From assembly GCA_001600815.1 (NCBI GenBank), contig BCKZ01000006.1, positions 964,137 to 1,028,136 of the forward strand: a DNA stretch of 64,000 nucleotides, given 5' to 3'. This document shows, piece by piece, positions 2,264 to 58,597 of the stretch. The translations under genes were made by a program, and so were the position numbers. The stretch is from Alloascoidea hylecoeti (lineage: Eukaryota). The notes beneath the pieces were generated by a model. That model was not told the origin of the DNA. It saw nothing but the letters and a program-made list of their open reading frames with translations, and did not search any database. Each line of letters starts with the position of its first letter. Position 1 is the stretch's first letter.

Positions 2264-4942
2264 TTAAACACTACTAGGTTCCATACCCATGTTATCATCA
2301 TTATGATTTAGATCATTAACATCATTGAAATCATCGATAACCATTTCATTCTCATCAACATTAGGCTTCTGTACCTTATCATTTAGGGAAAAATTAAACT
2401 GTAAGAATGATTCTTTTTCTATGGCCCAAGTTAACCATTCATCAATCCAACAGCGGACTATCCACCAAGCACCAAATCCACTACCACCATTTAAAGTTAT
2501 ATCTCTTAATATACTGGTGACCAGATTATTTAAATATAGTATGACTATTCTAACATGAATATCAGAAAATCTTAATGGTATCGAGGATAAAAACTGAGCC
2601 CATTTAAGGATGACCTCTTCGGAAAATGACAAGCCAGGATGCGTTGAACTTAATTCCTTTTTAGTCTTAGAGGGTGATATTTGAGATATAATAAATGATG
2701 ACGATGACATTTTTCCATCGTGCATTGGTGAACCCAATCTTTTAATTGGGGCTTCCTTTGATTTTGGAGTAATTACGGGAGATTGATCTATTTCATTATC
2801 ATTATTGCTGTTATTACCATTTATTGAGTCCGTGGTATCATTATTAGTATCGCTCATACTTTCAACTACTGGCTTGTCTTCTGGAATACCATATTTTAAT
2901 AAATCAATAACATCTTTAGTTAAAAGTTCTAAAACAAGCTTTCTTTTTGCTTCTCCAAATTCACAATTGATTTCTCTATAAATTATCATATTAAAATCGA
3001 CCAATTTAACCCAATCTCCTAGCATAACTTCAAGATCAATTGGATTACTGAGAATCTTGCCAGCCGCCAAAGCAGTTTCATTTACCCTAACTAGACCAGA
3101 TATTAAATTTGCAAACTTTGAAATAGATTTTAACTTCATTTCCAAAAATTTATCCAACCTTTGTTTTATTCTTTCTGATGCTTCTTTATTATATCTTTCT
3201 TCTGTTTTATTAATCATCTGTTTAATCCAATTCTGTAAAATCTTTGTAAAGTTTTCAACTATGCAACATGATATGTTTTCAAGTGCCGTTAGAACCTGAG
3301 AAGGAACATTTTGCAATGCAAGAGGTGAAATCATTTTTAGCATTTCTTTATACATATCAAGATCTGAGCTAATGATCCATATATCAAATACATTTGTATT
3401 ACTATTGCAGTCACCAAACTGTTCCAAATCTTGAGCCCAAAACACTTGTTCTAAATTCCGGGTTAATGCTGAATCGGCTTTATGATATGATTCAACTAAC
3501 TGGAAAAACTTTTTAATATGTAAAAATCTTAACGCTTCTGCCAATTCATTGCAGTAGTTAGTATAAGATTCAATCAAACTTGATATTGTTGGTTGATTAT
3601 TTTGTAGTATGGTCTGTGATATAAAAGGCTCTATAGGTCGTAATACTATTTTCTGAATGACATGAGGGACCATACTGATGTTAGCAAACGCCTCAGTTAA
3701 TTTAACTTTAGGTGTCATAGAAATAAGAGGATCATATGATTTTTGAATGAATTCTCTATTGTTTAAATTCATTTGAGTAGCTAATGGTGGAGACGCAGAC
3801 CCTAATGGATTGATAAATAAACTATCGTATTGTGTACTGTCAATATAAGGTAAATCAAACAACGGCGTTATACTTCGTGTTGGTTTATGATTCTCTGGTT
3901 GGGCTTGAGGTGGTTCATTATCAATTAATCGTATTCCACAGTAATGGTATTTTGATTGCCCTCTCGTGCCCAATCTTCTAGTCGTTATATCAGGGAAAAT
4001 ACCTTTAACTAGTTTACCGAAAGCAGCCTGACCCAAAGGTTTTAGATGATTATTTGCACATATAGAAGCATATTTTGCAAATATTCGATTTCGTGGAACA
4101 GCCGAATCCATTGAAATTTGACAAGTTTTTAAAATAATGATGATTCCTAATAGTTGTTTACTTCTTTCAGTTTGATCTTGAAGGTCTATGTCATGTTTTA
4201 AGATATCCTGAACCGAATCATCAATTTTACCAAGAGCAAGATGCCGTAAGTCATCCATTGTTTCGTCATTACGGGTATTGGTGTTATGCCCGGGCGTGGT
4301 ATCATTTTTGCGATAGACCTTTCCATTAGGGGTTGTTATTATTCTTGGACTATTGCCATTGCTTATAGAACGCATAGAACCAGGCGAGTTTCCAGACAAA
4401 TGAGAAGGAATCATATGCAGTTGAATTGGGGTGTGAACAGAAGGAGAGCCAGAAGGTCCAGAAGAAGCCATGGGAGGAGAACCGTTAAAAGAAACATGAC
4501 GGGAGTGCAGTTGAAGCTGGTGGTACTCATTTGCTGTCACTGACTCCTGAATTTGGAGTTGTGAGCTGGCTGAATATGACTGGACCTGCGAAGGAACAAT
4601 ATTTATGTGCTGTTGGTGCCCTCCAACAGGAATATCCATGGACTTGTCCCGACCCCGTGGGTCATTCTGAATGCTGTCTAAATTGAAATTATATTGTTGA
4701 AGAGAAGAGACGCGAGGATCAGGACGGTTGTTGATGTCAATGTTGGTGTTAAAGTTTTCATTGGGATTCTCTTCATTATATGTGCGTTTCAATTGAGAAG
4801 TAGCGTTGTGATTGGAAGATGTGTCAATCTCCTTGGTGACATTATTGGCCATTTGGTAAATATTTGTTTCTTGCTTGTTTGGTTCTAAGTTGGCTCCTAA
4901 AGCCGGGTCTATTGCCATGCCATTTCGTAGAACTTGATCCAT
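2264..4942 (-). CDS. RFX1: RFX-family transcription factor (Rfx1/Crt1-like), 892 aa
   Basis: RFX DNA-binding domain signature AVPRNRIFAKY...LGQAAFGKLVKGIFPDITTRRLGTRGQSKYHYCGI; C-terminal dimerisation-type motif GSGFGAWWIVRCWIDEW. Confidence 0.93.
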   Translation of the reverse strand: MDQVLRNGMAIDPALGANLEPNKQETNIYQMANNVTKEIDTSSNHNATSQLKRTYNEENPNENFNTNIDINNRPDPRVSSLQQYNFNLDSIQNDPRGRDKSMDIPVGGHQQHINIVPSQVQSYSASSQLQIQESVTANEYHQLQLHSRHVSFNGSPPMASSGPSGSPSVHTPIQLHMIPSHLSGNSPGSMRSISNGNSPRIITTPNGKVYRKNDTTPGHNTNTRNDETMDDLRHLALGKIDDSVQDILKHDIDLQDQTERSKQLLGIIIILKTCQISMDSAVPRNRIFAKYASICANNHLKPLGQAAFGKLVKGIFPDITTRRLGTRGQSKYHYCGIRLIDNEPPQAQPENHKPTRSITPLFDLPYIDSTQYDSLFINPLGSASPPLATQMNLNNREFIQKSYDPLISMTPKVKLTEAFANISMVPHVIQKIVLRPIEPFISQTILQNNQPTISSLIESYTNYCNELAEALRFLHIKKFFQLVESYHKADSALTRNLEQVFWAQDLEQFGDCNSNTNVFDIWIISSDLDMYKEMLKMISPLALQNVPSQVLTALENISCCIVENFTKILQNWIKQMINKTEERYNKEASERIKQRLDKFLEMKLKSISKFANLISGLVRVNETALAAGKILSNPIDLEVMLGDWVKLVDFNMIIYREINCEFGEAKRKLVLELLTKDVIDLLKYGIPEDKPVVESMSDTNNDTTDSINGNNSNNDNEIDQSPVITPKSKEAPIKRLGSPMHDGKMSSSSFIISQISPSKTKKELSSTHPGLSFSEEVILKWAQFLSSIPLRFSDIHVRIVILYLNNLVTSILRDITLNGGSGFGAWWIVRCWIDEWLTWAIEKESFLQFNFSLNDKVQKPNVDENEMVIDDFNDVNDLNHNDDNMGMEPSSV

Positions 4943-5751
4943 ATTGTGTATGTCTTACAATTATCGTTTAATGGTCAATAAATAGTGCTCATACAGACTT
5001 GAAAAAAAAAATTGGAAAAGAAAACGAGAATAACAGCAAACGTTGCAATAGGGATTTCCTAATTATGTCCGAGACAACCTGAGATGGATGGATCGATGGA
5101 ATAATTAAGCTTCTAATGAGACTTTATGGATTATAAGGGTGAAGATTTGAAAAGTTTAAGATAACGTTAACGATACAGTTAATAGCAAAGTACAGCTTTC
5201 ATACCAAGATATATTCTTGATGGACAGCTTGAATACGTCCCCGAAAGTAATGTGAGAAAGTTGAAAAGACCTACTTTAAGCCTTGAAGGTGCTTTTGAGT
5301 AGATGTTCAGAAGATCTGGAAATGGTAAAGAGCGCGAGAAAAGCTTGGGCGGAGAGAAGTTATATACGCGTATGTTTAGTTTTTAAAATTCTTGAAAAAA
5401 AATTTGATCTTCAAATCAACAAATCAAATATCCATATAAATTCTATTTGCGCCACAATGCTGATTGAATTGAAATGCTAATTTCTACAATATATTGACAA
5501 GGAAAACTATTGCTTTCGTGCTCATGAAAATATACACTGGATGCGGAGATATCACGTGTAAAGGAAGCAAATAATATAAGGTTTAACAAAAAGTTCGTGC
5601 CTGAAATAAATCTACATGAGAATCAAAACAATTAATACTAATAACAAAATCAAAATACAGTATTATTTTTAAAATAAATTAAGCAAGTAAATCAACTTCA
5701 AAATAAAATATAATTTTTAGAACAAAAAAAAGGAATTAAAACAACTTCTTT

Positions 5752-8700
5752 TTACAATTTATTCATCTTATAATTTGGAACAGGCTTTAATAACCCTTCA
5801 TTAATCAGATCCTCAATAACTGATCTATTAATATGTGATCGCAATTGGCCATTGCTTATCACTCTGTTCGCTATTTTACAAATTTCCCGATCATGAAAAA
5901 TGTCCCATCCCATCCCATTGCTCGGCTCCGTTATCAAACTTAGTGCTCTCCCAAAATTTTGTGTAGCTGCCTCAAAATGCCCATCCAAGGCTTGATAGTA
6001 TCCTAAATATGAATAAACAACAGGATTATCTTCATCAATACTCAAAAACGTGTTAATTAATCTGCTCAATTTTTCACTTGGGTTAACTGCGACTTGTCTT
6101 CCGATTCCTGTTAATATTCCCCAAAAAATATCACTCATAACATAAATCTTTTTGGCTCTTTCATTAATATAACCAACCATGCTTAACGCCCTTTCAAATG
6201 CATTTAGCCCCTCCAAATCCCGCTTATTTGTATATAACACTTCACCATATAAAACATAATACATCGGATCCGGTCGTGTCATTTGTGAACGCAAAACTCT
6301 TTCAATAACATCAATTCTTTTAGCTGTATGCCACCTACTAACTTGAACATATAACGTCAAATATAATGACTCCTGTGGTTCTTCTTGGACCAACCTTTCG
6401 AGTATATCAGTAGCTTTCGCAAATTGTTCATTTTGATAATAGAATATAGCAAGGTACGCTTCAATTCTAACACCAGTCTCTGTTCTGCCAAATGTTGCAG
6501 CCAAATCTTCTAATTGTTTAGCTTTTTGATTCCATCGTTCTTTTAACGCTTTTTTGAAAATGACTTCACGTTTATTATTATCTTCAATATATTGTGTTGC
6601 AATTTCTCGATCGTAACTATTTAAAGCACTTAGTTCATTATTCATTGTAACTGGATCAGGCAAAATTTTGGGAAATAAATAACCTTTATATTTCTTCGTT
6701 TCTTTATTAACAATATTCCATTCCTTACAGGCTGAATCTCCTAATTGTTTAAATTCTAATTCGATACTATCACAGAGTACACTTTTAATAAAGCTTGATA
6801 AACGACTATGTTCATCGGCATAATTTAATGCAATTGCCTTTTCAATATCAAGTAAACCATCTTCCTTTTGCCCACTAAATATTTTTGAAACTCCTCTATA
6901 ATCATAAGCAATATAAGAATATTCAGAATCGAGATTGACTGCAGATGTGAAATGTCTAATTGCATCAGGTAAATATTTCGGTTCACAACGATCTAACATA
7001 TCAATACCTAACTTTAAATAATAACCAAATTTCCCAACATTTGATCTTTCTTCAACCAATAATTGTGGTAATTTTATAAATGGCCAAAAGTCAATTAAGA
7101 ATGATATTTGATATTTTGTCATTGGTTTTACATTAGTAATTTCAACTGATGAATTTTGTAACAATAATCTACTTTTCTTTTTAGATAATTCTGAAAAGTA
7201 ATCTTGTACTAATTTTAATCTAATTGATTTCAACCTAGTAATAATTTCTTTATTATGTGAATCCATGAAAAAAGCAGTTGCTATTGCATCATAAGCAGCA
7301 CCAAAATTTCTATTTTTGATTTGTAAACCAAATGCTCTTTTATAAAAATTAGATTTTGTTGGATCTAATTCAATTGCTTTTATAATATCTTCCAAAGATT
7401 TATCAAAATCATTTAATGATGCATAACAAATTGATCTATTGGAATATAATGATGGATTATTGAAATATCTTAAACCTTTTGAAAATTTAAGAATAGCATC
7501 CCTATATTTTCGTTTTTTCATTAATAAACATCCTTCAATTCTATACCTAACAGCAACAGTTTGTCTATCATTTACCGATAATGATTTAATATAATCTTCC
7601 CGACGAGCAGGACCTTCTTGTTGATGTCTTTCCTGTTTAAACTTCTTTTTCAAATTTGAATCATATTGCCTAAAAGGTATCAAAGAACTTTCACTAATCG
7701 ATTCATCTGAAGATCCGTAATAATCTTGATCGAAGATTTCAAGATTTGCTCCAAGTTTGGATTCCTCATCTAAAATATCGGCAGTTGAAATTCCATCACG
7801 ATCAAGACCACCACGATTATTACCATTTGCTATAATAGTATTTGGACTACTAGGTATGATTGTATTTTGTAGTATATTATGGTCATTAATATATTTCACA
7901 AGTTGATTTGTACTATATTTTTTATGTTTAATGATTTGTGGCTTTTTAGATGGTATTTGTTCCTCTCTAAGATTATTTGGATTTCCACCAGATGGTTCCA
8001 TTATTGAATTATATGTTAATTGTTTAAAAGACCATATCGAAGCATCATCGTCAATTTCTTCTTCTGAGCCTTCCTTTATACTTTGATTCGTTGTTCCTGA
8101 AGGTATCTTTTTATGTTTTCTACCTCGTATTTCAATACCGGAAAAAACACCAGCGCTTGAATCTAGATTATCATCAACACCAATATAAAATGAATCTGCA
8201 GATGATATCGATGCTTGAGATGCATTACTTCTTGTTGATTGCATTCTCATGATTTGTTTTGGTAATGGAGCAGGAACGCCCTTATCAAATGATACTTTTT
8301 TCTTATGATGCCTATCAATTTGTATACCAGAGAAAATATCACCAGTACCACCAATATTGTTTTCTAAATTATCATCCAAACCAATATATATCGATTCACC
8401 TGAAGTTGCAGAAGCCATGGAAGCCATCGATATTTGTGATGAACGTTTACGAAGTCTTTGACTTACTTGTCTTTGAGGAGTATCAGGAAGATGAAATGAT
8501 ATCCTTTTAGTACCAGGACCAGAACTTGGTGGCGATGTACTATTATTATTTCCATTTGGAGTTTTGGATCCTTCTTTCTTACTCTTTACAATCGAAGAAG
8601 GTCGTGCTATTGGAATATTCTGGGGATTTGCTATTTTGGCAGAAGGGGGTGATGTTGTGATCGATTCTGAAGGTGAAACTATGGCTGTATCGGGTGCAGG

Positions 8701-11700
8701 TGTTGACGTTGCCAATGGCCCTGCCGATTCAGGTGATTTTGATGTTTCCAATGTCGTTGCTTGTTCGGGTGTTTTTGCTGCTTCTAATTGTATAGATGAA
8801 GGTGAAGCATCGTCATGTAGTTGTAGTGGAGATGACTTTACATCAGGAGTCGATTGGATTATATTAGAGATGGGAGATTGGCGTGGAGGTTGTGGAGAGG
8901 GCCGAGAAGGAGGTATAAGATCTCGATTACTTTTAGTTTGAATTTTCACAGGGTCTGGATTTAAGCTTTCAGATAGTGGACCATCGACAATACCCAATTG
9001 AGACGGTTGAGACGGGAATTTATAAGGATGTTGTGGAGCATCTATTGGCGGTCGATATGGAGATTTGAATCTTTGGCCTATGGGACGTTCTGAAATTGGG
9101 TTCTTGAGAGGAAGTTTTCCAAGAGAAGGATTATCATTTGTAAGAACAGGAGCAGAAGCATTAATATTAATATTTTGTTCCAATCTTTGGCGGACGTCGA
9201 ACGGCAGTGGTGGATGAGATTGTGGTGATATTAGTGGCGAAGAAACAGCTGGAGAAGTATCCAGACGACGAGGATGGTATCTTTGACCCCTTGAAGGGTG
9301 CATCTGTGGTGTGTAAAAATTGCCGTACCGGTCCATTTCCGCAGGATTACTGTTACGTCGTTCATGAGGGTTTCGTTTATCAAGGATTTCGGTATCAGAT
9401 GCCACTGCCGTTGGAATAGGAACAGGCTTGCTGAAAATATACTCCTCGTGAGGGGCTGGCATCAGACTGCCATTAACCCCGGGATAAGGGCCATTAAGAC
9501 CAGGTCGTGGCGGAGCATCTCTTCTGAAAATACCATCTATCCGTTGTTCGTAGGATGGAGTGTGTGGATCTCCTCTTCTCAGGTTGATCTTGCTTGTCGT
9601 AGTATTTGTCGAGGCATTCGTGTTGTCGGATTGATAGCCAGACTTGTCTTGACTTTTAGCTACCTCGGTCTTGACCTTTTCCAACGCCAGGTTTCGGAAT
9701 TTCTTGGAGGACGCCACCAGGGAAGCCGCCCTGCGAATTTCATCCGCGAGATCGTTGGGGCCTCTTCCCGTTCCAGGTGTACGTTGGTTGCTATTTCCTG
9801 CTTTTCTCATTCCTTTTGGAATAAAATAAATAATTAGTGTTAATTAGTTGTCATAATCAAGAAAACAAAAACAAAAAAAAATAATATTGAAACATACCAT
9901 CAGTTGGCAGGGGGGATGCGTCGGATTGCCATGCTGAGACGGGAATGGGAACTTTCTGGCTCTCGCCTGAAAAGATGTTAGATAAAAACAACATTTATTC
10001 CCATAATTAAAGGATTTGATGGAGGTTTACAATTATTAATTGTGTAAACATACCTGACAGCATATCTTCCACGGTAACGGCAGTTTCAAAGAGTGGCTGT
10101 TTGTAGCCACTGCACGAATTTAGGTCGAAAGGATCATTCTTCAACGACCCCGTAGAATTGGAACTTTTGGAAGGAAAAATCTCGTATCCCTTTGCTGAAT
10201 ATTCTAGAAAATAAATCCTTGTTAGTGACATTTTTATAAGCTTGTTAAGCACTATTATTTAATAAATACCCGGGTGGCTCCAATTGCTACTTTTAGGTGA
10301 AACCTCTTCGTCGTAGTTTGGTGAAACAAATGAAAATTGTTCATTGGGCATCTGATAAGGAGTAATATGCTGGTTATTTGTTGCCATGTGCTCATTTTCC
10401 TTTAATGTCTCCGAAAATTTGAAAGCAGGCTTGAGACTTTCTTTCATTTTACCTGACCTATATTGTTTATTATGTCTTTCTATTGAAGGTACATGCGTAA
10501 CATATCGACTCTCAATATCTTGTAAATATTGCTCATCTAAATCTTCTTCAGGATATTTCGCTACTGTGGTGTGAAGTCTTCTAATTGATGTTTCGGCCTG
10601 GGGAGTTTCATTTATTGTATGTAAACCATGCGCTTTATTCTTTTCCTTTAATTGTTTTTCAAAATCAAAGATATTAAAATCAGATTCATCAGAACTGGGT
10701 TGATCAATATTTTCCTTTAATGGATTAAAGTTTAATCTAATTATTGTTCGGGAATTAAAGTTTGAAGATGATGGCCTTTTACCATGACCTGGTCGTTGTT
10801 TCCACGATCCATCTAGAAAAACAAAAAAAAAAGATTGTTAGTTCAGTTTATATATTTATATACTTAAAGGATAATGCTTACCCCTTGATGAGCTGGTCCG
10901 TAGAAGTTGTGAAACTTGTGGAAGTCTATGATCATCTGAATCACTAGAGATGCTATTATATCTGTTGCGAAGTGATGATGATCCTAATCCTATTCGAACA
11001 ATACTTGGAATATCTTCCATAGTAGTGGAAGAATCTTGTGATCTAGATTTAGATTTTGAAGTGCTCGATCTGTGTCTTCTAAAAATTAAACTTTCGGTTG
11101 TAGTAGTAGTACTCGGACTATTGGCGTTTCCTTTTTTAAAATATGGTTCATTATCATTAGTTTGCATATCATGATCTACTGTAACAAAAGGTGATTTTTT
11201 AGAATTCATCTTAGATTTATCTTCTTTTACAATAACAAGAGCAGGAGCAGGAGTCAAGTGGCTTGAATTGGGGGTCAAAGGCACGTTATACTTTTTACCA
11301 GCTAGTTCTTCAATATTAACATCTTTTGCATTTGGTAACTCTTGTTCATAATTAATTTCCTTTCTAGGGCTATCAGATTCTCCGATTAAAAGTTCACTTG
11401 TTGATTCTAACTCTTCAGTAATCAACTGTTCTAATGATTCTCTCATTTTTATTTTCAGAACACCAGGTTCTTCGGTATGCTGCTTCAAATCTTGAGCATA
11501 TTCTTCATAGGGTACAAGTTTTAAAACATATTTACCTCTATTTTCAGTAGTTGGGGAGTGAACAGCTTTTACTATTGATGTTCCGACTGGTAACTGTTTA
11601 GAGGTTTTGGGAGATTGTTTTTGTCTTTTGCTAATTTCATCTTTGGGGATAATTGAAGTTTGAGCAGGTATAAAAATTGCCTTTGGTGGTCTTCTTATTA

Positions 11701-14700
11701 AAGATTTATTTACTATATTTTTAATTGGTTAAGTTAGTCAAGAATAAAAATGATGTTCATTGAAATTGAATTCGTAAACTTACATCTTGTGATCGGGGAA
11801 TTAGGAGCAAAGGATGATATCCGTGGGGTCTCCGGTGTTTCCTGACTTTTTGCAGAGATAGCTGAGTTGAAGGTAGGGGTTGGAGTTGGAGTTGGAGGAG
11901 AAGCAAAAGTTACAGATTTTCTGGAGTATGGAGTATTAATGTTATCAGCACTTAATGGTGTTGGTATATTATTATCGTAATATTTGTCTGTGGGTGAATG
12001 TGGAGAACCTGGCTCTGTGATTATTTCTGGGTTCCCAACTTGCACGCCATAGTCATTACTTAATTGAACACCGGTAGAATTTTCATCTGTGTTTACACCT
12101 GTTTCAACCCTAATCACCTTTCCATTATCAGTTGTAATAGCTGGCGGTTCCTTCTCTTCATTTTCAAATTTCCGTGATGATAAAATAGAAGTATTTTTTA
12201 ATTTCAAATCTGAAAGAATAACGTCATCAATATTTTTATTAGTTGAGTTGTCAATTTCAAAACTATCACCCAATTTCGACCTCGACAAATCTATCGTTGA
12301 TCCACTACCAATCTCACTTAATTCTTTGATTTGAATATCTGATAAACCAGGAGATGATGCTAAGTTGATGACCGAGTCTGGGTCTAATAATGTATTTGGT
12401 GAAGCAGAACGGGCTAAACAGTGAATGTTAATGTTAGTGATTGCACTATAACTATATATTTGTTGTAACTTACCATCCAATTCATCAATCTTTTTAACAA
12501 TTGAACCATCTAATGGTTTTAATCCATTACTTTCTCTCATTATTTCTGACCTAGTGAATCCTCTTAAGTCAGCAACCGAAGATCTTCGTTTGATTTCTTT
12601 ACATATTTCATCGTCATTCTCATCCACTTTATCCAAATTTGATCCAATTTTCTTTCTTTTTTTATCAAAATCAGTTAAACTTCTAGTTAATCGGCGGTTA
12701 AAATTGGTTCGAGGTTTTGGTTCTGGAATGGATCTTTTCTTTTTTCGAGAAATAATTTCTTTGATATCTTCGGAATCAAGAAAAGTAACCATTGTATAGT
12801 TGTTTTTAGAATGTTTAGGATCAAAAGTAAGATTAGAATCAGATCTTCTAGGATTAATATTTGGCTTAAATAGTGGTTTATTCATTGATGGAAGAAACTG
12901 TAGTGATGTTGCTTTATTAACATGTTTCAACTTCGAAAAACCTCCTCCTTTTTGTTGTTCTTCACGACCTAGAGTGGTCTTTGAACTTTGTTTATCTAGT
13001 TGAAACTTTGGTGAATTTAATATAGCATCAGTTTTTATTGGTTTTATTTTATCAAATGCTTTAAATTCCTGTGTGATATCAGGATCAGGTTGTCTGGTAA
13101 TTTCCGTGACTTTTTCATTAGAAATCTCCAAAGAAGGCGCCAATGCTAGTGCATTACTTTCATTTGAATTTTGAATATTCTCAGTACCCTTTAGTGGTTT
13201 TGTCTCTACCAAGGATTCTGGAGAATTGTCTTTAACAGATTCATATTCATCTTCTACTGACATTTCAACATCATTATTTATGCTATTATCAATTCCGTCG
13301 CTCAGACCTTGATCAGTCATAGTGGAAATAGAATCGTTACGGAAACTTGATTGCCCAAACGAGCATATTGATCCAATGTCAGTAATCTTACCATCTGTTG
13401 AATCCACATCCAATATTGAATCAGGTTCTTGTAGCATCTCATTAGCTTCTTCAAAAAGATTATGTTCATTATTAATATCTTCATCGGAGTCATTTTCAAA
13501 TGGTGAAACGATTGAAACCATCGCAACTGAATTCATATTTTCAGAAACAATTGATTCAGGGCCAGAAAAATTATCTAAGTGATAGTCTTGGTTTCTTATA
13601 GATGAGAGACCATCACTTTGGTTTTCCAATAAAGGAGACTGGGCCTCATCAGTATACTTGTTATTATTTAGAAAACTCTTGGGCAACCCATCTAAGCCAG
13701 GTTGATGCTCCTCAAACTCGTGGTTATCGAAATAATTCAATTCATAAGGCCTATGATTATCATGGATAATTGATGATGTCTCACTATTATCAGAATTCTC
13801 AGATGGTGGAAGATTTAAAGAATGTTGTGATTTCAACCCCGTTTCTAATGATCCATATGATGAACGGTCATGTAATTTTGAAAAGTTTTTGAGAGTTTCT
13901 TCTTCAACTAACTTCGAAGGTTCTACTACAATTGGAGATGATAGTGAAGATGTTGATGATGACAGTATTTTATCATTATTCTTAAAGTGATTGTCGAGTG
14001 CCGTTTTAATCTTTAATTTTATTAATTCTTCTTGTGATAACGTTTCTGTTACTGGGGAATCAGAGTTTGAAATATCATTTATCATAGGGGTTTCAATTGT
14101 TTCTGGGTGCGATCCTTCAGAATCGGAATCAGAGCTAATAGGAAGAGCATAATTTATATCTACTGGTTGTAAAGCTTGGGATTCTGATGTTGAAGTTGAT
14201 AGATTCTGATGATTACTCGATGCTGTAGTTGTTGTTTCTGAATTTGAATCTGAATTCAACGGATCATCATTAATAGTACCAGATACTGTCACATTTTTAC
14301 CATTTTTCGTTCCTTCTTCTTCTGAGGCCGTTAAAGTATCCACTGAGGTTGTAGACTGTAATTGCTGCATATTACTGCTCAAGTATTCATCACTTGAATT
14401 AGTTATATCAGATGTTGACGGTCTCTTTTCCATTCTCATATTATTCTCTTTACCGTTTTTATCGTATGAATCAGAAAAAGTTGATTGAGCTGATAAATAT
14501 TTACTTGAATCTGAAGTTGAAGATGAAGTAGTTAAAGAATCTTCAATATTGGGTGAAATAAGGCTCTGAGAATTAGAATTATTGTTAACGGTAATTTCTT
14601 CCTGACTATTTCTTTTGGCAAGTTTGGGGAGATCTATGTGGGTATTAGCTCCATCTTCGCTATCTGTTAATCCTGTTTCAACCATTGTAGTACTTATATC

Positions 14701-16932
14701 TGATGGTTTGGAATCGCCATCTTCTATAACATGAGTTTCTTCCTTAAATACTTTGGTTTTATCAGTCAAACCAGAATTAGAGTTTAAAACATTAGATTCA
14801 TCTTTACTTGTAGGTTCATTATTCGCCATTGAATTAATATTATCTTCTATAGACGGCTCATCAGTATATTCTTCACTTGAACTATCAGTGCTTGTTTCAG
14901 AACGAGGTGAAGTAAAATGAATTTCTTCGACAGATTGTTGGTTTAATTTGATTAATGAAGTCGATTTTATATTATCACCATTATTTGTTGTATGTTCAGA
15001 TTTAGATGAGCTAGAAGCACTCCCTTCCGAGTCGAAATGTAATCTATTATCCACTATATCTTCATGGGTGTAATCATTAGTTGTTGCATTAAGATCAAAG
15101 ATACTCTTTCGTTCGTCCATAGATGGTAGCATTGGGATATTTGTATCCGTGGGCCCTACTTCCGGTGATGAATCAAACATAGATGCATCATCATCATCTG
15201 AATCAACTTCAATTCTAATTAACTTCGAAGTATGCTTTGCTGGAGGAACTTCAAAACTAATGGGTCTTTTACCTTTTCGAAATGTATCATAAATATCATC
15301 TTTAGATGATGTATTCGAATAAAAGGAATCAGTGGATGCCACAGAAAATTTTCTAGACCAGTCTGAGGATGAATTAGCAGTTTGATAAGAAGTATTAGTT
15401 TGAGGTGTACTATTATTAGGATCAAAACTAAAGTTCGTGTTTGGCGTGAAATTAAAAGATGACTGAGTTTTATATGATGAATTAGATGAAGTTGATGGTT
15501 GGGATCTGTGAAAATGGTTTTCAACTGGGGTACTTGGTTTTATTGTTTTATTAAGATTATTGGGTTCACCTTGATCAGAATCTGAGTCCGTCGCATCCGA
15601 CTCCATGTCAGAGTCAGAGTCTGTTTCAGCTTTTGTTCTTTTTAATGGAGATTCGTAATTCTCGTCATCTGAATTGGATATAGCAGGTCGTTTTTCCTTT
15701 GCTGAAAGAGATTTATTAACGTTAGTAATAGAATGTGAAGTCTCGGGAATATTCTCGTCCTCTAAAACATCTTGTCCTGATAATAAACTGTTTGTTAAAC
15801 CCTTTAGTTGATCATTTAATGCATTAAAATTTTCCAATCGAGTATTTTCACTTGTCTTTTCAATATTTCCTGCTTCATTGTCATCATTGTATGAATATCT
15901 TGACGACGGTGATAATTGAGTAGATTCAATTGTGGATGGTATACTTAAAATATCATAAGAATCATCTTCTTCATTTTCAACTGAGCTATCGTCATTATCA
16001 TCCTCATCAATAAAATTTTCAGAAGATGAGTTTGATAAAGCACTTGAATTAAGTACAGGTATAGCAGGTGCAGTTTGATTGTTTCTAAATTGTACCTGCG
16101 CATGTTCTTGTTCTAATTCTTCTGCTTGTGGTCCCATTGCTGAATTCATGAAATCTGCACTTGGTAATCCAACATTTTGTTGCTCACCCATCTCATCCGG
16201 ATACTCATCTTCATCATAATATATACCATCCTCGTCATCGTCTTCACCATCAACTGGTATATCTTCCATTGTTTCTTCAAACCAATTACTAGCCATTCGC
16301 CTTTCATTAGTAGGCGTAGATGTTGTCTCAGTTGATGTTTTACCATTTTTAATATTGTCAACAGTAGTTTTGATATTATTTATTGTTTTTGTATATTTTG
16401 CAAGTTTAGAAGCAGTTGAAGAAGAAGAAGATTGTTGTTCTAAGCTTTGTTGAATGGTAGTAAGCCAATTTCCCGCTCCTCCTGAACTAGCAACAGGGTT
16501 TTCGTGAACTTTAATATTATTAGCTGTAGCGTTATTATTAGGATTATTTAATGATGAAGATTTTAGATGTTTTCTCTGTTGTTTCTGTTGTTCTTTTAAA
16601 TATTTCTGAAGCTTTTTACGTGCTTTCTTTTCCGCTTTTTGTTTTGCTAATTGTAGGAGATTTGTATTATCAACATTCCTATTGTGTGTTTTCATATTGT
16701 TACTGAAAGATCGCGGAACTGAAGATGGTATAGATCTAGGAGCATTATTGTTACTAGTATTATCGGATGAAGTGATTAGTGCTGAGGTTGGGTTGAAACT
16801 TGTTCTCTTTGAATATATATTAGACGCGTATGGGGGTTGAGGCTGCGACAGAGTATTATGTTTATTGCGAGAGTCATCTTCATCTGAGCACTCTTTAATA
16901 GGCTCCAATAAATCGATAGTGTATCTTCTCAT
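5752..16932 (-). CDS. Giant six-exon gene (~3600 aa): long low-complexity N-terminus plus C-terminal Tom70-like TPR domain. Exons 16932-11784, 11712-10882, 10812-10270, 10203-10054, 9966-9898, 9812-5752
   Basis: Five introns (11783-11713, 10881-10813, 10269-10204, 10053-9967, 9897-9813). Donors GTAAGT/GTAAGC/GTATTT/GTATGT/GTATGT, CTAAC/CTAAT branch sites, TAG/TAG/TAG/CAG/AAG acceptors; an in-frame CAG at 9798 is an alternative last acceptor. Manual translation across the junctions stays open and joins ORF-track entries 11734-16932, 10856-11488, 10259-10447, 10007-10252 and 5752-9810. Confidence 0.85.
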
Positions 16933-17465: not shown

Positions 17466-17975
17466 TTAATGGATTTTTAGAGGCCATGGACTAAAGTCAA
17501 TTGAAATGGCTTGTGAATGTCTATCTCTTAGTAACCGGCCTCTGACTATATGAACTTTCTCCTTCAATAATGTTAGGGTTGATGATTTTCTTTTTGTGTT
17601 TTTTAAACTCATATGCAGATTGCAATTGGAAGGAACAAACCTATGAAGCGTTTTTTTAAATCTTGAGTGATGACGAATTGATTTATCAGTGGCCTTAGGT
17701 TTATCGACTTGTTCTTTAAATCTATCATAAAATCTATGACTAGATGAAGTGTGCAAATCTTTAGATTTGTCAAAACTCAGAGCAGAACTGGCTATGGTAG
17801 AACTCGAGGGCGCTTGATCAAGAATAATGTGGAAAGGAGAAACTTTGGAGTTATAGTAGTCAGTGTCATAATCTGGATCATTATAGATATTATCTTCAAT
17901 TTTCAGATGTTCATTTCTCTTTTCAGACTTGTAATTTTTGCAATTGGTTTCACAGCTCTGTAAGTTTGAAAGCAT
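17466..17975 (-). CDS. Hypothetical protein, 169 aa, Ser/Lys-rich
   Basis: ATG-initiated 510-nt ORF in AT-rich DNA; no recognisable domain. Confidence 0.5.
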   Translation of the reverse strand: MLSNLQSCETNCKNYKSEKRNEHLKIEDNIYNDPDYDTDYYNSKVSPFHIILDQAPSSSTIASSALSFDKSKDLHTSSSHRFYDRFKEQVDKPKATDKSIRHHSRFKKTLHRFVPSNCNLHMSLKNTKRKSSTLTLLKEKVHIVRGRLLRDRHSQAISIDFSPWPLKIH

Positions 17976-19551
17976 TAAAAAAAAGGTTTGAATTGTAGTT
18001 AGCTTGTAGAAAAATATTCCTCCAAAATATTGTTAGAAAGGAAACATTTTTAATTAAATTTGAGAAGTATAATGTTAATCACATTCCAAATTCCACTTTT
18101 ATATACTTATCAATATTTATTCCTTTGTTCCAAGTGTAAAATTGTATGCACTACCTGTATTTGTTAGATTGTAATTTTCCTATCGAATAATTATCATCAT
18201 GAATGCTAAAGAATGTACGAAAAGTTGGATCTCAGGTCTCGCCAAAGAAGCAGCGTAATTTACTGTAATCCTACACGAATTCCGGGGTTTCACTAAATTC
18301 CCGTCCATACCATAAGACTTACAGACACAAACTTCTCGATGTTATATTTTTTTGGTTCAAGGGCTTGGTCTGGCTTTCGTAGAGCACATGCTTTCCCGGA
18401 CCCGGATCCGACCGAACCCCTCCACTCTATTGTTAGACCATATCATCCCATTCCTTTGGCTCTTCGCATTTTCAGATAAAGCTTTTGAGATGCAAAACAT
18501 ATTCTTTATTCATGCTTATTTAGAAGGGTTCTTACTTCTTAGGATTATAAAAAAACTTATAATTGTGCCGAGAGATAAGCGCCAGTTTAACCCGACCAGC
18601 AGTAATTTTACCCGGGCTTTAAAAGAAAAATAATTAGGCTTATAACTTACCAAACTAAAATAAAGGAATTTCTAGGCTCTAAGCTTTTTGACAGTACTTT
18701 CAGTACGTAATTGCTAAAACAGAATGACTAATTATAATAAATATGTTAACGTTGCAATTGGAGAATTCTTAATCAAGCCGCAAATAAGCCTAAGTCTAAT
18801 AATCCTGGTTGAATAGATTTCAGAAAAACCGTTTATATTATTAATTTCTGGACAAATAGCTAATTATATTTCCGGGATATTACTAATGAAATCTTTGAAA
18901 ATCGTTAAATATCTCCCTACTGGTTGACTAATTATTTTCAGACGTCTCCGTTAAACTTTAGCAACACCGACATTGTTTCCTTATTACAATACGTGAAGTC
19001 TGTCAATGTTGTGATCGGATGTTTAACTATGATAACTGCTTTACATTTACGGTTGATGTGGGGTAACAAGATAGTTCTGGATCTCCCTATATCAAAAGAT
19101 TACTACAAGCTTATGGATTCTATGGTATAAATGGTTTAGTTTCAATCGCAAGGAGGCTCTCTGGGAGGTTTGCAATTGATATCCTATTGACATTAATACT
19201 AACTTTGAAGATAACTTTTAACTTCAGATGTTGCAGTGCTAGCTATACGGTGGAGTAGTTGCGGCCTCGGAATGGAGGGAGTGGCGTAACTTTAGATCCA
19301 GGCGCACAAAATGTCAGACAACTTTTCTTTTTCTCCTTTTATCATTAGCTAGTTTAGTTGATCACAAAAATATCACTCTTTTTATTCGGTTTATAATTCG
19401 TTCCGGAGAGTTAATCAGAGGAAATTAAAGGCAATGGAACATTATAATTAAAACTAATACTATCCCAACAGAAATTCGAAGCTACTATAGCCACAACAGA
19501 AACTTCATGCCATTACAATGATCATCGATTCAAATTCAATGAAATTTTATT

Positions 19552-26535: not shown

Positions 26536-28119
26536 TTATAGATTATAAATTTTTTTATAATCATCAAGACAGCCTAAACCAATATATTCTAAAAACCAAG
26601 TATTTAAATTTAAAGCAAATATTGCAACACCACTATAAACAATTAATCTTGCAATTACTTCAACATCATATTTATTTCTTTGAATTTTTAATTTTGATTT
26701 TAAATAATTTTCTTCATCTAAATCAGTTTTAAATTTTAATGATAATTTATCTAACTGTGGGAAATCTTGAAATTTATCATTTGAATTATCATTATCATTT
26801 GATTTATAACTTGAATTATTAACTAATGGAGATGAAGAAGAAGAAGAAGAAATTGATCTTTTTCTATATTCTCGATATGCCATTGTTTCATAAACATCAG
26901 CTTCTGATTCAGGACCAATACTAACAGCTCTTTTTCTTAAGATTAATTTTGGTACATTTGGAGTATTATCATAATCAACATTAACATCAATCTTCTTAAC
27001 ATCAACTAATTTATTATTATCATCATGATCATGGTTATGATTATGAATTGGTTTATTTAATTGATGAAAACCTTTTCTTGGTAATGAAACATTAAATTTT
27101 TCATCAAATATTTTATAAATTGGTGGTAAAATATAATGAATTAAAATTTTTTTTGAATAATGTTTCCAAATTATAATAATTATTATATTTATTAATAATC
27201 TTAAAAAAATTTTAAATGAACCAAATGATGAATATAAAAATGGAATTGTTGATGGAGTTGGGAAATTAATTAAATAATTTAAATTATGATTTGAACCATA
27301 CCAATGTGATAAATCAACACCAACTAAAACACCAAGAAAAGCAACGGCATCATCAAAACATGGACAATTATCAACAGGAACGGGATAAATGTTTAACATT
27401 AGTAAAACAATTGGGACGATTAAAAGAGCCAATGGAGAAGCAGAATATACCAAATTATCATATAAATCATGAGTTAAATATCTTAAAAACACAGTGAAAG
27501 TACCAATTAAAGCACCAACAATTATATCCAAAAAGCCATGCATACCACAATAAATTCGACCAAACATTAAACTGAAAGAATATAGAAAAATGATAAAATT
27601 GGCCAAAATTCGTAAAGTTGGAGATATTTGAGATTCGTCTAGTTGGTATAATTGAAGTAGTAATACCAAAGTAACAGCCATAGCATTTGCCGAATGACTA
27701 CTTGGAAATCCATATTCCAGCGCAGTGTAACCACTAAGGGTGATTCTCGCCAGTGGAGGAGATAAGGGCCTGGGCAAACACACGAAGTCTTTCAAAGCGC
27801 CCGAGAAGTAGATGCCAATCCCTAGGACGAAGATCAAAGTGCGGCCCAGGTCGGTGTAGCCCAACCACAGGGGTAGTGGAAGGAGCGTAACGTAGAAACC
27901 GTGGGATCCCAAGGAGGCAGACCATGCAAAATAGTAGTCCAGAAACGAGCATCTTGTCGAATGTTGGATGGCCGCCAGGAGCCTTGTTTCGCTCCTGACG
28001 AAGGGCAGCAGCCTTGATCTGATAGTGAACCTGAGGGGGGACAAGTGGGATCTGTAGTGCTGAGCGGGTTTGATGCCGGCATCTTGGGACGGGTCCGTGG
28101 AAACGGCGAAGTTGGACAT
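26536..28119 (-). CDS. LCB3: Long-chain base-1-phosphate phosphatase (PAP2 family, Lcb3/Ysr3-like)
   Basis: KDFVCLPRP, EYGFPSSHS and GRIYCGMHGFLD PAP2 motifs; multiple transmembrane segments; PVDNCPCFDD. Confidence 0.93.
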   Translation of the reverse strand: MSNFAVSTDPSQDAGIKPAQHYRSHLSPLRFTIRSRLLPFVRSETRLLAAIQHSTRCSFLDYYFAWSASLGSHGFYVTLLPLPLWLGYTDLGRTLIFVLGIGIYFSGALKDFVCLPRPLSPPLARITLSGYTALEYGFPSSHSANAMAVTLVLLLQLYQLDESQISPTLRILANFIIFLYSFSLMFGRIYCGMHGFLDIIVGALIGTFTVFLRYLTHDLYDNLVYSASPLALLIVPIVLLMLNIYPVPVDNCPCFDDAVAFLGVLVGVDLSHWYGSNHNLNYLINFPTPSTIPFLYSSFGSFKIFLRLLINIIIIIIWKHYSKKILIHYILPPIYKIFDEKFNVSLPRKGFHQLNKPIHNHNHDHDDNNKLVDVKKIDVNVDYDNTPNVPKLILRKRAVSIGPESEADVYETMAYREYRKRSISSSSSSSPLVNNSSYKSNDNDNSNDKFQDFPQLDKLSLKFKTDLDEENYLKSKLKIQRNKYDVEVIARLIVYSGVAIFALNLNTWFLEYIGLGCLDDYKKIYNL

Positions 28120-28239
28120 AAATATTACAGTAGTAAATCAGCACAGGTAAATAATTAATTAATACAGAGTACAGTGAGTGATGGTGGATATTATTATATA
28201 AAACAGAGCTCTCGCATTTTTACCACTCTCTGCGCAGAC

Positions 28240-30822
28240 ATGAACACTTTCCACCCAAACAGCGCCTTTTTCGCAGACGGCCCCCCCAACACCCAATCCT
28301 CCCCCCGAACACCCAGACACCCCCACGCCCACGCCTACCCTGCGGACCACGGCTTCTCCGGCGTCCCGGGCTCCGGGGCCATCACGGCGTCGGGCTCCAT
28401 GCGGCCCAGGCCCTACACGTACCCCCCCACCCCCACCCCGACCCGCGCGAGGGCGGCCCCGCCGAGACACAGCACGGACGCCCCCCGTCCGTCGCCGCCG
28501 CGGGGCGTCTGGGAGGATCAGCAGACGCAGCAGAAGCGGCCCAGGCCGTCCCACAGTCTCAAGAGCCTGAAGAGCTTGAAGAGTCTCAACAGCCTTAAAA
28601 AGTACATGAGCCCCAACCCCAGCCCCAACCCCAACCCCAACCCTCGCTCCCCCCACCCTAGCCGTCCGGACCCCCCTCTGCGTTCGCCACGTGAGCAGCA
28701 CACCCCCATAACTACGCATTACATACTGAAGAACAAGTCTCCCACACCTTCTAACAAATCAAACGTCCCCGAATATCGATTGGTTGATCAATCTGCCTAC
28801 ACCGAAAAGTTCACCAAATCTTATAATGGAAGATTATCCTTGGATTATAACACACCACCAAAACTGTCTCAGTCTCCTTCTCCATCTCCATCCCAGCCGC
28901 AGACAAGACGATCCCGCACAAAATCAAGATCAAAACCACAGACCCAATCAAAGTCAAAATCAAAGCAGAATTCGAAAAAGAAATCAAAACAAAAACAAAA
29001 ACAAAAAAAACTTCCTATAGCAATTCCACCAATAATATCAACTCCGCATTCATCTCCAAATTTTAATACTTTCAATACTTCAAAACTATCTTTTGAGCCT
29101 GATTATAAAATTAAAATCGTTCTTATTGGTGATCAATCATGTGGTAAAACAAATTTATTATCTTCTTATTTAAATCAATCATCAACAATTCCAAAATTAA
29201 ATTTAAATCCAAATTCCAAAATTTTTGAAAACTATATATCAAATGTTAAAACTCCAAAATCAAATAAATTAATTCAATTAGATCTTTGGGATACTGCTGG
29301 TAATCAACAATATGAAAGATTAAGACCATTAATTTATCCAAATGTTAATATTATATTAATATCTTTTGCAATTGATAATCCACAATCATTAATTAATACT
29401 TTAGATTATTGGTATCCTGAAATTTCTTTATTTTGTCCTGATATACCAATTATATTAATAGGTTTAAAATCGGATTTAAGGTATATGAATAATTTAATTG
29501 GTAATGAAATTGAAAATCAAAATCAAAATATTATATCAACTTTTGAATGTCAATTAATGGCTAAAAAATTAGGTGCAATTGCTTATTTAGAATGTTCATC
29601 TTTAAAAAATTTAAATATTAATAAAGTATTTAATTTAGCTATTACTATTGTTATTGAAGGTGAGAAATTTATTAATAAAATTAAACCAATTTTATATGGT
29701 AATTCAATTTCAAATACAAATACAAATACAAATACAAATAACAATTCAAATAAAGAAGGAAATGGAAATGGAAATGGAAATGGAAATGGAAATGGAAATC
29801 CAAAAATATTAATTCAAGATGTTGATGATAATACTGGTCATGATGGTGGGAAATTTTATGATTTTTTTAATGAAGATGAAATTAATAATGATGATGAAAA
29901 AGATAATGAAATTGATGAAATTGATGAAATTAATTCAAATATATCAAATAGTGATAGTGATGATAGTTTTAATGAAATTGAAGATGCTTGTGATTCAGAT
30001 ATGAATTCTTATTTGAATTTTAATCAACAAGGGAATAAAATTCATTATCAACGACAACATAAACACCATGAACAATATGAACAACGACGGATAATTAGAG
30101 GTGGTTTACCGACACCAAGTTTAACTCCAAGTCCTAATGGATCAGATAATTTAACATTAAATTCAAATTTAGATTCAAATCAAAAGTCAAATCAACGTTC
30201 AAGTAAAAATTCAAAAATTAGACCACATTCAGAAATAATTCAACAATCAACTAAAAAATTATCAATGGATACCACTAATCATAGACGTATTTCATCAGTA
30301 GATTCAAATTCAAATATATCATCATCAATTTCAAATCTTCCGATACCACCTTCAAATTTACAATTACATTATAAACAAAAGCAAAAACATTTACAAAATC
30401 AATTACAATTACAACAACAATTACAATTACAAAAGCAACAACAACAACAATTACAACTACAGAAACAACAACAATTACAACTACAGAAACAACAACAATT
30501 ACAAAAACAACAAATACAACTTCAACAACAGCAATATCACGAACAAATACAACAGCAGAAACAAATACAACCTAAATCATCTTCAAAATCCTTAAAATCT
30601 TTAAAATCTTTAAAATCTCTAAAATCTTTAAAATCAAATACATTATTACGTAAAAAAAGCAGAAGTTTAAAAGCTCATTTAAATTTAAATCATATGAATG
30701 ATCATTTAAATAATATTAATGATAATAACATCAAAGATTATGAATATGATTATGATGATGATGATGATTATTCATTATATGGTTATGATTATAAAGATAA
30801 GAAAGATTGTGTTATGTTATGA
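28240..30822 (+). CDS. Atypical Rho4-like GTPase with long N- and C-terminal extensions (860 aa from ATG 28240; the ORF track starts at GTG 28174)
   Basis: KIVLIGDQSCGKT, IFENY, LWDTAG, RLRPL, WYPEISLFCP, GLKSDLR, ECSS; C-terminal CAAX KDCVML; overall pattern closest to Rho4. Confidence 0.85.
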   Translation: MNTFHPNSAFFADGPPNTQSSPRTPRHPHAHAYPADHGFSGVPGSGAITASGSMRPRPYTYPPTPTPTRARAAPPRHSTDAPRPSPPRGVWEDQQTQQKRPRPSHSLKSLKSLKSLNSLKKYMSPNPSPNPNPNPRSPHPSRPDPPLRSPREQHTPITTHYILKNKSPTPSNKSNVPEYRLVDQSAYTEKFTKSYNGRLSLDYNTPPKLSQSPSPSPSQPQTRRSRTKSRSKPQTQSKSKSKQNSKKKSKQKQKQKKLPIAIPPIISTPHSSPNFNTFNTSKLSFEPDYKIKIVLIGDQSCGKTNLLSSYLNQSSTIPKLNLNPNSKIFENYISNVKTPKSNKLIQLDLWDTAGNQQYERLRPLIYPNVNIILISFAIDNPQSLINTLDYWYPEISLFCPDIPIILIGLKSDLRYMNNLIGNEIENQNQNIISTFECQLMAKKLGAIAYLECSSLKNLNINKVFNLAITIVIEGEKFINKIKPILYGNSISNTNTNTNTNNNSNKEGNGNGNGNGNGNGNPKILIQDVDDNTGHDGGKFYDFFNEDEINNDDEKDNEIDEIDEINSNISNSDSDDSFNEIEDACDSDMNSYLNFNQQGNKIHYQRQHKHHEQYEQRRIIRGGLPTPSLTPSPNGSDNLTLNSNLDSNQKSNQRSSKNSKIRPHSEIIQQSTKKLSMDTTNHRRISSVDSNSNISSSISNLPIPPSNLQLHYKQKQKHLQNQLQLQQQLQLQKQQQQQLQLQKQQQLQLQKQQQLQKQQIQLQQQQYHEQIQQQKQIQPKSSSKSLKSLKSLKSLKSLKSNTLLRKKSRSLKAHLNLNHMNDHLNNINDNNIKDYEYDYDDDDDYSLYGYDYKDKKDCVML

Positions 30823-31961
30823 AATTAATGTTATTAATTGGATTGGATTGAATTCAACAATGAACAATATTATTTGTTCTTTTTTTGTTTGTTGGAATCG
30901 ATATATATGTTGGGGGGGTTAATAATTTGCAAATTGATTGGATGATTGTTTTTAAAATTAGATCATTAGATCTTATTTTTTTGTTTCTTGACTTTTGATT
31001 TTTGTTCTAGAAATTTTGGTCTTTATTGTACTTGATTGTTTCCTTTATATTCAAAGTACATTGACATTAAACGGTAGATTAATATTCTTATCGGTATCTA
31101 TCTATCTATCTATCTGTCTTCTTGCCTTCTAATTATCATATCTTATGACGCGCTTACGTTTCCTTTACTCTCATTACATGTTTCATATCTTAATGGTTCT
31201 CGTTCATTCAATTTTATGTTTAAATTTTCATATTTTCTCACTTTAACTATTAATTAAAAAAATGACAATTGTTTATCTATAGTTTATCATAAACAAAAAT
31301 ATAAAAAAATACAAAAAATACAAAAAAAAAAAAAAAAGACATTCAACATTCGTGTTTTTATTATTATCATTATCAATGATTATAATCATGATTTTTTTTA
31401 TATAATTCACAATTAATATTAATATTTGATATGGAATTGAATTGAAAAATACTTTTATAGAAATTATAATTATAATTGCATTTGATTTGATTTTATTTAA
31501 ATTTAAGCTGAGACAATATTTGATTGCAAAGCTTGATCAAGATAATTTACCATAATATTATTATTTTCTATTTTTTTATTTTTTCTTATTTATTAACATT
31601 TAATTGTTATTTTTATGTTATGAATAAATCATGTTAACGCTTAAAACCTCGTTTAACATAATTATTGAAAATGTTTTAAATTTAAATTTTAAAAAGTAGA
31701 TAGCATTAACGATTTTTTTCCTTATGATTTTCTTTAGATCTAGATCTATAGATCTCTCTTATGTTTTTATTTATTGACTTTATTAGTCTTTAAATTTGTT
31801 TTTTTTTTTTGTTTTTGTTTTTTTTCATTATCATTATCATTAAAATTTTCATAAAATATTATTATTGATTATTAATATTAAACATTAATTTATAATTCTG
31901 TACTACTTTCTAACTATCGAACAACTTTATAATTAATATTATATAGTTGTAACATTCGTTC

Positions 31962-32003
31962 ATAATATAATATAATATAATATAATATAATATAATATAA
32001 TAT
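31962..32003. repeat. (ATAAT)n microsatellite
   Basis: Read directly. Confidence 0.9.
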
Positions 32004-40320: not shown

Positions 40321-40539
40321 TATTATTTGCGATCGCGTCAAGAAGTTAGGATAGCAAAGAATATACTAAATTTAAAAAAGTCGAAAAGTTGGAAATTGTT
40401 AATTATAAATTTAGAACAATTTGAAATTCCAAAATATTAATTTTTCAATAATCACTAAAAGTAGAGAAGGACATCCTTATATAAATTTATTTTTCCGCCG
40501 TTGTTTTTCTTTAGTACAACTTGTAGGAATCAACTGTCC

Positions 40540-58528: not shown

Positions 58529-58597
58529 CTGCATCTTAATTAATAATTGAACTACACCCTTAAATTTTTCTTAATTAGATTTATATACAGATTCCTT

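Follow-up and report, generated by a model that had tools for sequence, protein, structure and literature searches.

A probable giant spliced gene of Alloascoidea hylecoeti joins a predicted disordered chain to a partly Tom70-like TPR domain

Background

Tom70 is a mitochondrial import receptor of the outer membrane and part of the TOM complex. It is known as an anchored protein of about 600 amino acids (aa), and in the portions of the literature available to us the anchor is retained by those paralogs and Tom70-like genes that have been described (PMC7583919, PMC3097184). The available sections of PMC7583919 describe a protein of 617 aa with 26 helices and 11 tetratricopeptide repeats (TPRs), whose clamp is formed from TPR1-3; a figure legend of the same paper names R171 as defining the chaperone site, and its text names Pex5 as a cytosolic TPR receptor. 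Diverged Tom70-like second genes are present beside a canonical Tom70 in stramenopiles, for example Esi0007_0019 of Ectocarpus, and their products keep eleven TPRs as well as a transmembrane segment at the N-terminus, according to the corresponding part of PMC3097184. In this study, we analyzed a stretch of 64,000 nucleotides (nt) from Alloascoidea hylecoeti (contig BCKZ01000006.1 of assembly GCA_001600815.1, positions 964,137 to 1,028,136), hereafter called the window, which carries on its minus strand a gene model for a protein of 3,600 aa whose last 640 aa form a TPR domain.

With slightly better than even confidence, we read this locus as a real, lineage-restricted gene encoding a soluble giant protein that consists of a disordered chain and a partly Tom70-homologous TPR domain. 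The protein is not considered a Tom70 because it has no anchor, scores far below the family and has a partly replaced carboxylate clamp. What it shares with Tom70 and Tom71 (2gw1, 3fp2, TIGR00990) comprises the clamp TPR1-3, to which a linker and a first core TPR are joined at the same spacing, an 'EYSY-AY' stretch within that first core TPR, an all-helical TPR solenoid of about 600 aa and the clamp Arg. Unlike them, it lacks an anchor, carries about 2,960 extra residues upstream, reaches 57 bits against a 757-bit cut-off, has an inserted helical stretch and C-terminal ~350 aa that cannot be aligned, and shows R, C, N, N, R at the clamp positions.

Other TPR proteins resemble it over shorter distances or in layout. 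Hop/STIP1, SPAG1, RPAP3, SGT and CNS1 give the strongest local matches to the clamp (7e-14 to 1e-6), but these matches end after about 100 residues and the accessory domains of those proteins are not present here; Hop/STI1-type co-chaperones combine several clamp TPR domains with DP/STI1, whereas the window protein has one clamp-type module and no STI1 in Pfam. The N-terminal part of Pex5 is disordered. In architecture only, the window protein would be analogous to Pex5, which has a disordered N-terminal chain, a C-terminal TPR peptide receptor and no membrane anchor; the sequences, however, do not match specifically, the TPR domain of human PEX5 stands only at Foldseek rank 39, and the arm is about ten times longer here. 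The stramenopile proteins differ in being anchored. No anchorless giant Tom70-like protein was found in the portions of text returned by full-text literature searches.

Gene model and splicing

From 16995 to 5752 on the minus strand, a chain of open frames of 1,753, 290, 192, 83, 60 and 1,363 codons (stop to stop) was found, the first and last of which share one genomic frame while the middle ones use another. The five short gaps between them (9600-11900) each start with GT and end with AG. An earlier inspection of the letters alone, hereafter the sequence-only reading, had proposed a hidden gene of about 3600 aa in which five short introns join the fragments into a 10,803-nt frame, and this model was reproduced exactly, with 3,600 aa and no internal stop. 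Its parts are as follows.

5752..16932, minus strand: whole gene, six exons, coding sequence (CDS) of 10,803 nt, 3,600 aa, 0 internal stops
11784..16932, minus strand: exon 1 (aa 1-1716), Ser/Asn/Thr/Asp/Glu-rich arm predicted to be disordered, with basic clusters at aa 1396 and 1424
11713..11783, minus strand: intron 1, 71 nt, GTAAGT..GACTAAC..TAG, frame shift
10882..11712, minus strand: exon 2 (aa 1717-1993)
10813..10881, minus strand: intron 2, 69 nt, GTAAGC..AACTAAC..TAG, in-frame stop inside
10270..10812, minus strand: exon 3 (aa 1994-2174)
10204..10269, minus strand: intron 3, 66 nt, GTATTT..CACTAAC..TAG, in-frame stop inside
10054..10203, minus strand: exon 4 (aa 2175-2224), 150 nt, chance of being open ~0.03
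9967..10053, minus strand: intron 4, 87 nt, GTATGT..ATCTAAC..CAG, in-frame stop inside
9898..9966, minus strand: exon 5 (aa 2225-2247), 69 nt, chance of being open ~0.18, the least supported exon
9813..9897, minus strand: intron 5, 85 nt, GTATGT..ACTAAT..AAG, shifting the frame back
5752..9812, minus strand: exon 6, stop codon included

All five introns are of the GT..AG type, lie in phase 1 and measure 66-87 nt, and a branch-point-like element is found in each (CTAAC in four, CTAAT in the fifth). Splicing rather than read-through is required, because the frame is shifted by introns 1 and 5 and interrupted by in-frame stops within introns 2-4. An alternative genetic code was considered for the in-frame stops and ruled out by the two frame-shifting junctions together with the splice signals at all five. 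The stop frequency in the six frames of the window is 0.071 per codon, and the chance probabilities of open runs of 1,753 and 1,363 codons are near 1e-56 and 1e-44, respectively; exons 4 and 5 (50 and 23 codons) draw their support mainly from the splice signals. In all four CDS parts, the G+C content is 0.20-0.25 at third codon positions (GC3) as against 0.40-0.50 at first positions (GC1), and synonymous codon usage correlates with that of four neighbouring genes (r 0.50-0.92). No other ATG precedes the start codon at 16932 within its open reading frame (ORF); this codon has A at -3, and a TATA-like run lies about 100 nt upstream. The genome is AT-rich, and the intron style and neighbouring genes are fungus-like. 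Taken together, these signals in the DNA make it very likely that this is a single real gene and that the splice model is correct. In public protein collections, the locus appears only as two separate ORFs called in the prokaryote manner (P0001 and P0195, of 1,352 and 1,732 aa), which hides the full architecture there.

TPR domain and its relation to Tom70

The similarity to Tom70 lies in the first part of the last 640 aa, to which the residue numbers in this and the next two sections refer unless whole-protein positions are given.

6817..7596, minus strand: Tom70-collinear stretch (aa 27-286 of the last 640), with clamp, helix A7/linker and first core TPR
7240..7590, minus strand: clamp-type TPR1-3 (aa 29-145 of the last 640), Pfam TPR_2 7e-14 and TPR_1 1e-7

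The top match in NCBIfam was the TOM70 model TIGR00990 (1.1e-15), with aa 27-286 aligned to profile positions 113-363 of 615 in a single stretch, and the same model was the top match of P0025, an ortholog described below (2.5e-16, profile 113-373, also a single stretch). Among the best 150 library matches, P0168, whose source name is Geotrichum candidum TOM70, was the only protein of about 600 aa that spans query residues 28-284; BLASTP gave 27% identity with it over 259 residues (pairwise E 1e-20). When an alignment of the window protein and its ortholog was compared with P0168 by hhalign, a probability of 98.8 and an E-value of 1.2e-16 were obtained over 262 columns, as against 95.5 and 1.5e-8 over 108 columns, clamp only, for the Plasmodium Hop control. 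In a feature search of the ESM Atlas, TOM70 clusters were placed at ranks 2 and 4 (scores 0.94-0.95). After removal of the clamp, six Tom70 sequences gave the best single-stretch scores behind the ortholog among 193 proteins, and the match (21-25 bits) joins aa 213-284 to Tom70 273-344.

Tom70 as the best overall match of the last 640 aa, which the sequence-only reading had anticipated, thus came out by four routes (TIGR00990, hhalign, Atlas, and Foldseek on a poor model). The two peptides that had been singled out there were also found where expected, one in the clamp-type TPR1-3 and the other in the piece aligned with the first core TPR of Tom70. The wider claim that the last ~600 aa follow Tom70 held for the first ~260 residues; the last ~350 align only with the ortholog, and sub-optimal hhalign alignments of the C-terminal half with Tom70 had a probability of 1% or less. 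As far as alignment can tell, the N-terminal ~260 residues of the domain are homologous to and collinear with the N-terminal domain of Tom70, the remainder being a diverged TPR-like solenoid with an insert, and common descent of the domain with Tom70 is probable.

The clamp was also compared by itself. Gathering scores of the TPR superfamily (Pfam clan) were passed by TPR_2 (51.1 vs 27 bits) and TPR_1 (31.9 vs 27.8 bits), with weaker Pfam TPR models further downstream. Sequence matches in the PDB were confined to the three-TPR module (residues ~29-145) and included STIP1/Hop (7e-14), SPAG1 (1.7e-11), yeast Tom70 2gw1 (1.5e-8) and Tom71 (1.7e-7), as well as CNS1, SGT, RPAP3, PP5 and CHIP; a two-sequence profile gave the same picture, with SPAG1 rising to 7.4e-21. 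A better match of the TPR region to other families, which had been set down beforehand as speaking against Tom70, was thus found locally, the clamp alone being nearer Hop and SPAG1, while Tom70 stayed best overall. By its sequence, the clamp is of the Hsp70/Hsp90-tail-binding type and, taken alone, not closest to Tom70. None of the STI1/DP, PIH, U-box, phosphatase or J domains was detected with Pfam.

The canonical carboxylate-clamp set for EEVD binding is K, N, N, K, R. The aligned positions are occupied by R, C, N, N, R in the window protein and by K, T, N, K, R in P0025, so that the Arg at the Tom70 clamp-Arg position is retained, the first-helix Asn is lost in both, and two of the five clamp residues are replaced in the window protein. 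Judged from these residues, EEVD binding by the TPR domain is possible but doubtful.

C-terminal half and structure models

In Tom70, TPR4-11 form the C-terminal core that binds preproteins. No significant alignment with Tom70 was obtained past residue ~286. Downstream of the collinear stretch, two further segments were distinguished.

6538..6816, minus strand: helical stretch (aa 287-379 of the last 640), matching only the ortholog P0025, with which it is strongly conserved
5800..6537, minus strand: TPR-like helical solenoid (aa 380-625 of the last 640), with ~14 predicted helices, Pfam TPR_19, TPR_14 and weak TPR_17

In the AlphaFold2 models of the last 640 aa, only residues ~380-630 reach a predicted local distance difference test (pLDDT) value of 55-72, and the helices predicted for the TPR domain would, in so poor a model, suit about 10-12 hairpins. 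When the second model was searched with Foldseek, yeast Tom70 came first (E 1.1e-4), and Tom70/Tom71 occupied seven of the nine top rows. The models support an all-helical, TPR-like solenoid and nothing more specific.

Ortholog and YIG motif

The only true relative among 1.84 billion representatives was P0025, a 747-aa ORF from an NCBI contig of 8.9 kb, with 54% identity over query residues 23-460; the end of this ORF may coincide with an intron or with the end of the contig. Conservation between the two proteins is strongest in the post-clamp linker, the first core TPR and the inserted helical stretch, where it exceeds that of the clamp. Upstream of the TPR domain, a YIG element of ~32 aa is the sole conserved island, with two copies in the window protein and one in P0025.

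8296..8403, minus strand: YIG motif copy 1 (aa 2718-2753 of the protein), matching the single P0025 copy with pairwise E 3e-4
8107..8202, minus strand: YIG motif copy 2 (aa 2785-2816 of the protein), matching P0025 with pairwise E 4e-6

By its sequence, the core of the element, Y-x-x-[LVI] with a Ser/acidic flank, would fit a putative Atg8-interacting motif. Further relatives were sought in several ways. A metagenome scan yielded 488 pattern matches, of which two were confirmed, both of them weak and clamp-only at 29-32% identity; a search for longer forms (1,121-3,200 aa) returned only the 1,352-aa ORF of the locus itself and generic TPR proteins, and no full-length form above 3,200 aa appeared in a length-free search.

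Disordered arm and missing anchor

The arm extends from residue 1 to ~2,960 and contains 14.6% S, 8.3% N, 7.2% T, 7.2% D and 7.3% E, with W and C at 0.2% each. D and E together make up 14.5%, the N-terminus is acidic, and basic residues cluster at two places, aa 1396 and aa 1424. Hydrophobic residues make up a fraction of 0.15-0.28 in the arm vs 0.36-0.41 in the TPR domain. A low-complexity arm of ~3000 aa had been proposed from the sequence; its Ser/Asn/acidic bias was borne out, while its length is ~2,960 aa and it is non-repetitive, with 0 arrays in the arm DNA by Tandem Repeats Finder (TRF) and no internal protein repeats by self-BLAST. The arm is thus better called compositionally biased than a low-complexity repeat. 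Pfam detected no family in it at E<=0.01, and a search with the 1,716-aa product of exon 1 found no relative of 943-3003 aa other than itself. The arm is probably intrinsically disordered and fast-evolving. Its last part, at the start of exon 6, carries both YIG motifs.

7675..9812, minus strand: start of exon 6 (aa 2248-2960), Pro/Ser-rich disordered stretch with both YIG motifs

An Atlas search with the 712 aa that precede the TPR domain gave 'Factor interacting with REF2' as the best cluster (0.86, low recognition), which was treated as a compositional likeness. The G+C maximum of the window (0.416, at 8001-10000) falls on the beginning of exon 6, which is rich in Pro, Arg and Gly and has a GC1 of 0.50 and a G+C content at second codon positions (GC2) of 0.48.

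The absence of an N-terminal anchor, noticed in the sequence-only reading, was confirmed for the whole protein: no transmembrane-like segment was found, and the best 19-residue Kyte-Doolittle mean (1.16) lies inside the TPR domain.

Alternative explanations

Several results count against the reading of a soluble giant with a partly Tom70-homologous domain. The gene model comes from sequence; in three metatranscriptome runs of the same study, nothing matched the locus except chance fragments of 18-33 nt, with no junctions, and exon 5 is short. The TIGR00990 score is 57.3 bits against a cut-off of 757, although a genuine Geotrichum Tom70, at 412, also stays under it, and generic multi-TPR proteins reach 90-284 bits on this model via short stretches; because the score is thus not specific, the argument for Tom70 rests on collinearity. 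The clamp on its own is nearer STIP1/Hop, SPAG1 and RPAP3 than Tom70, the clamp-free Tom70 match is not significant at library scale (generic TPR proteins reach 19-23 bits), and residues 300-640 matched nothing but the ortholog P0025 in alignment searches among 193 proteins. The AlphaFold2 models are poor, with a mean pLDDT of 43.9 from the single sequence and 45.4 from the two-sequence alignment, and the template modelling (TM) scores from Foldseek are only 0.19-0.31, which on such a model makes its ranking weak; an independent VIA-align search returned only generic TPR/HAT solenoids (Z 9-11), with Tom70 tied at rank 36 (Z 9.2). Solubility, peptide docking and a platform role are, moreover, what we infer and not what was observed.

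Alternatively, the C-terminal domain could be a TPR module of the clamp type that belongs to Hsp70/Hsp90 co-chaperones of another or independent lineage (Hop, SGT, RPAP3, SPAG1 or TTC-like), with unrelated TPRs behind it; the longer alignment with Tom70 would in that case reflect nothing more than generic TPR periodicity. The outranking of Tom70 (1.5e-8) by STIP1 (7e-14) and SPAG1 (1.7e-11) in the PDB sequences agrees with this, as do the TTC34 and DNAJC7 clusters in the Atlas list, the bacterial multi-TPR protein P0044 that also aligns (query residues 40-293) and the marginal clamp-free Tom70 signal. However, the matches of the co-chaperones span only ~100 residues, as against 240-262 columns for Tom70 with a matching spacing from the clamp to the next TPR, their STI1/DP, PIH, U-box, phosphatase or J domains are missing, and the Foldseek list is headed by Tom70/Tom71; we therefore regard a co-chaperone origin as somewhat unlikely, while granting it an appreciable chance. 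That the protein is instead the true Tom70 receptor of the organism, targeted to mitochondria by means other than an N-terminal anchor, agrees with Tom70 being the best overall match, but appears extremely improbable, for there is no transmembrane segment anywhere, identity to a yeast Tom70 is 27% and limited to the first 260 residues, TIGR00990 gives 57 bits here vs 412 for a genuine Tom70, the clamp is partly replaced, and 1.84 billion representatives yielded a single ortholog, in contrast to the wide distribution of Tom70.

The gene model itself could be wrong, the arm ORFs and the TPR ORF being separate genes or a decaying locus with a coincidental splice pattern. Besides the metatranscriptome result, this would suit the shortness of exons 4 and 5, the automated ORF calls that list the pieces apart (1,352 aa and 1,732 aa) and an ortholog known only as a 747-aa ORF. 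Nevertheless, the gaps measure only 66-87 nt, too little to fit a terminator and a promoter between the ORFs, and each has GT..AG and a CTAAC-like branch site; intron removal restores one frame across two frame shifts, codon bias is uniform, and 10.8 kb run without frame disruption despite 0.071 stops per codon in the window. Separate genes or decay are accordingly judged quite unlikely.

Proposed role and significance

On the reading of one soluble, partly Tom70-homologous giant, the protein would be soluble, and its TPR solenoid may serve for the docking of peptides, either a chaperone tail or some other short peptide of acidic or hydrophobic character. A flexible platform with short linear motifs, among which the conserved YIG element is the clearest candidate, could be provided by the long disordered chain. 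Architecture alone would make a soluble adaptor, with a TPR docking end on a long motif-bearing disordered chain, the most likely role; the tether or scaffold function put forward in the sequence-only reading, for a neofunctionalised Tom70 paralog, is speculation. A fuller scenario, in which a Tom70-derived domain was released from the membrane within one small lineage of fungi and joined to a disordered chain of ~3,000 residues, yielding a soluble giant adaptor that captures chaperone tails or mitochondrial-type precursors while the chain acts as a tether or condensate scaffold via YIG-like motifs, seems to us unlikely, if conceivable.

If true, the reading would mean that the receptor module can be put to new use off the membrane, and the protein would offer a natural test case for the Tom70 N-domain outside TOM. 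The weight of this is limited, since two family members are known and only half of the domain is, by sequence comparison, demonstrably Tom70-like. For annotation, the locus illustrates how ORF-based calls break up a giant spliced gene.

Neighbourhood of the gene

About 800 nt downstream of the stop of the giant gene lies an 896-codon ORF (2264-4954, minus strand) that carries an RFX DNA-binding domain (7e-29) together with an RFX BCD domain. Upstream of the ATG, at a distance of ~470 nt, there is a 188-codon open frame (17466-18032, likewise minus strand) that may be a small gene or a chance run; no splice link from it to exon 1 was evident. Other genes identified in the window are listed below.

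26536-28137, minus strand: PAP2 phosphatase gene
28159-30822, plus strand: 887-codon ORF with a Ras/Roc GTPase domain at aa 319-496 and long non-domain extensions on both sides
38596-40365, minus strand: thiamine-pyrophosphate enzyme gene with three TPP domains
45878-49213, minus strand: UCH deubiquitinase gene
58547-60346, plus strand: gene for a nucleotidyltransferase of the poly(A)-polymerase/CCA-adding type

The G+C minimum of the window (0.215 vs ~0.31 elsewhere) is at 30001-32000, just past the Ras-like ORF.

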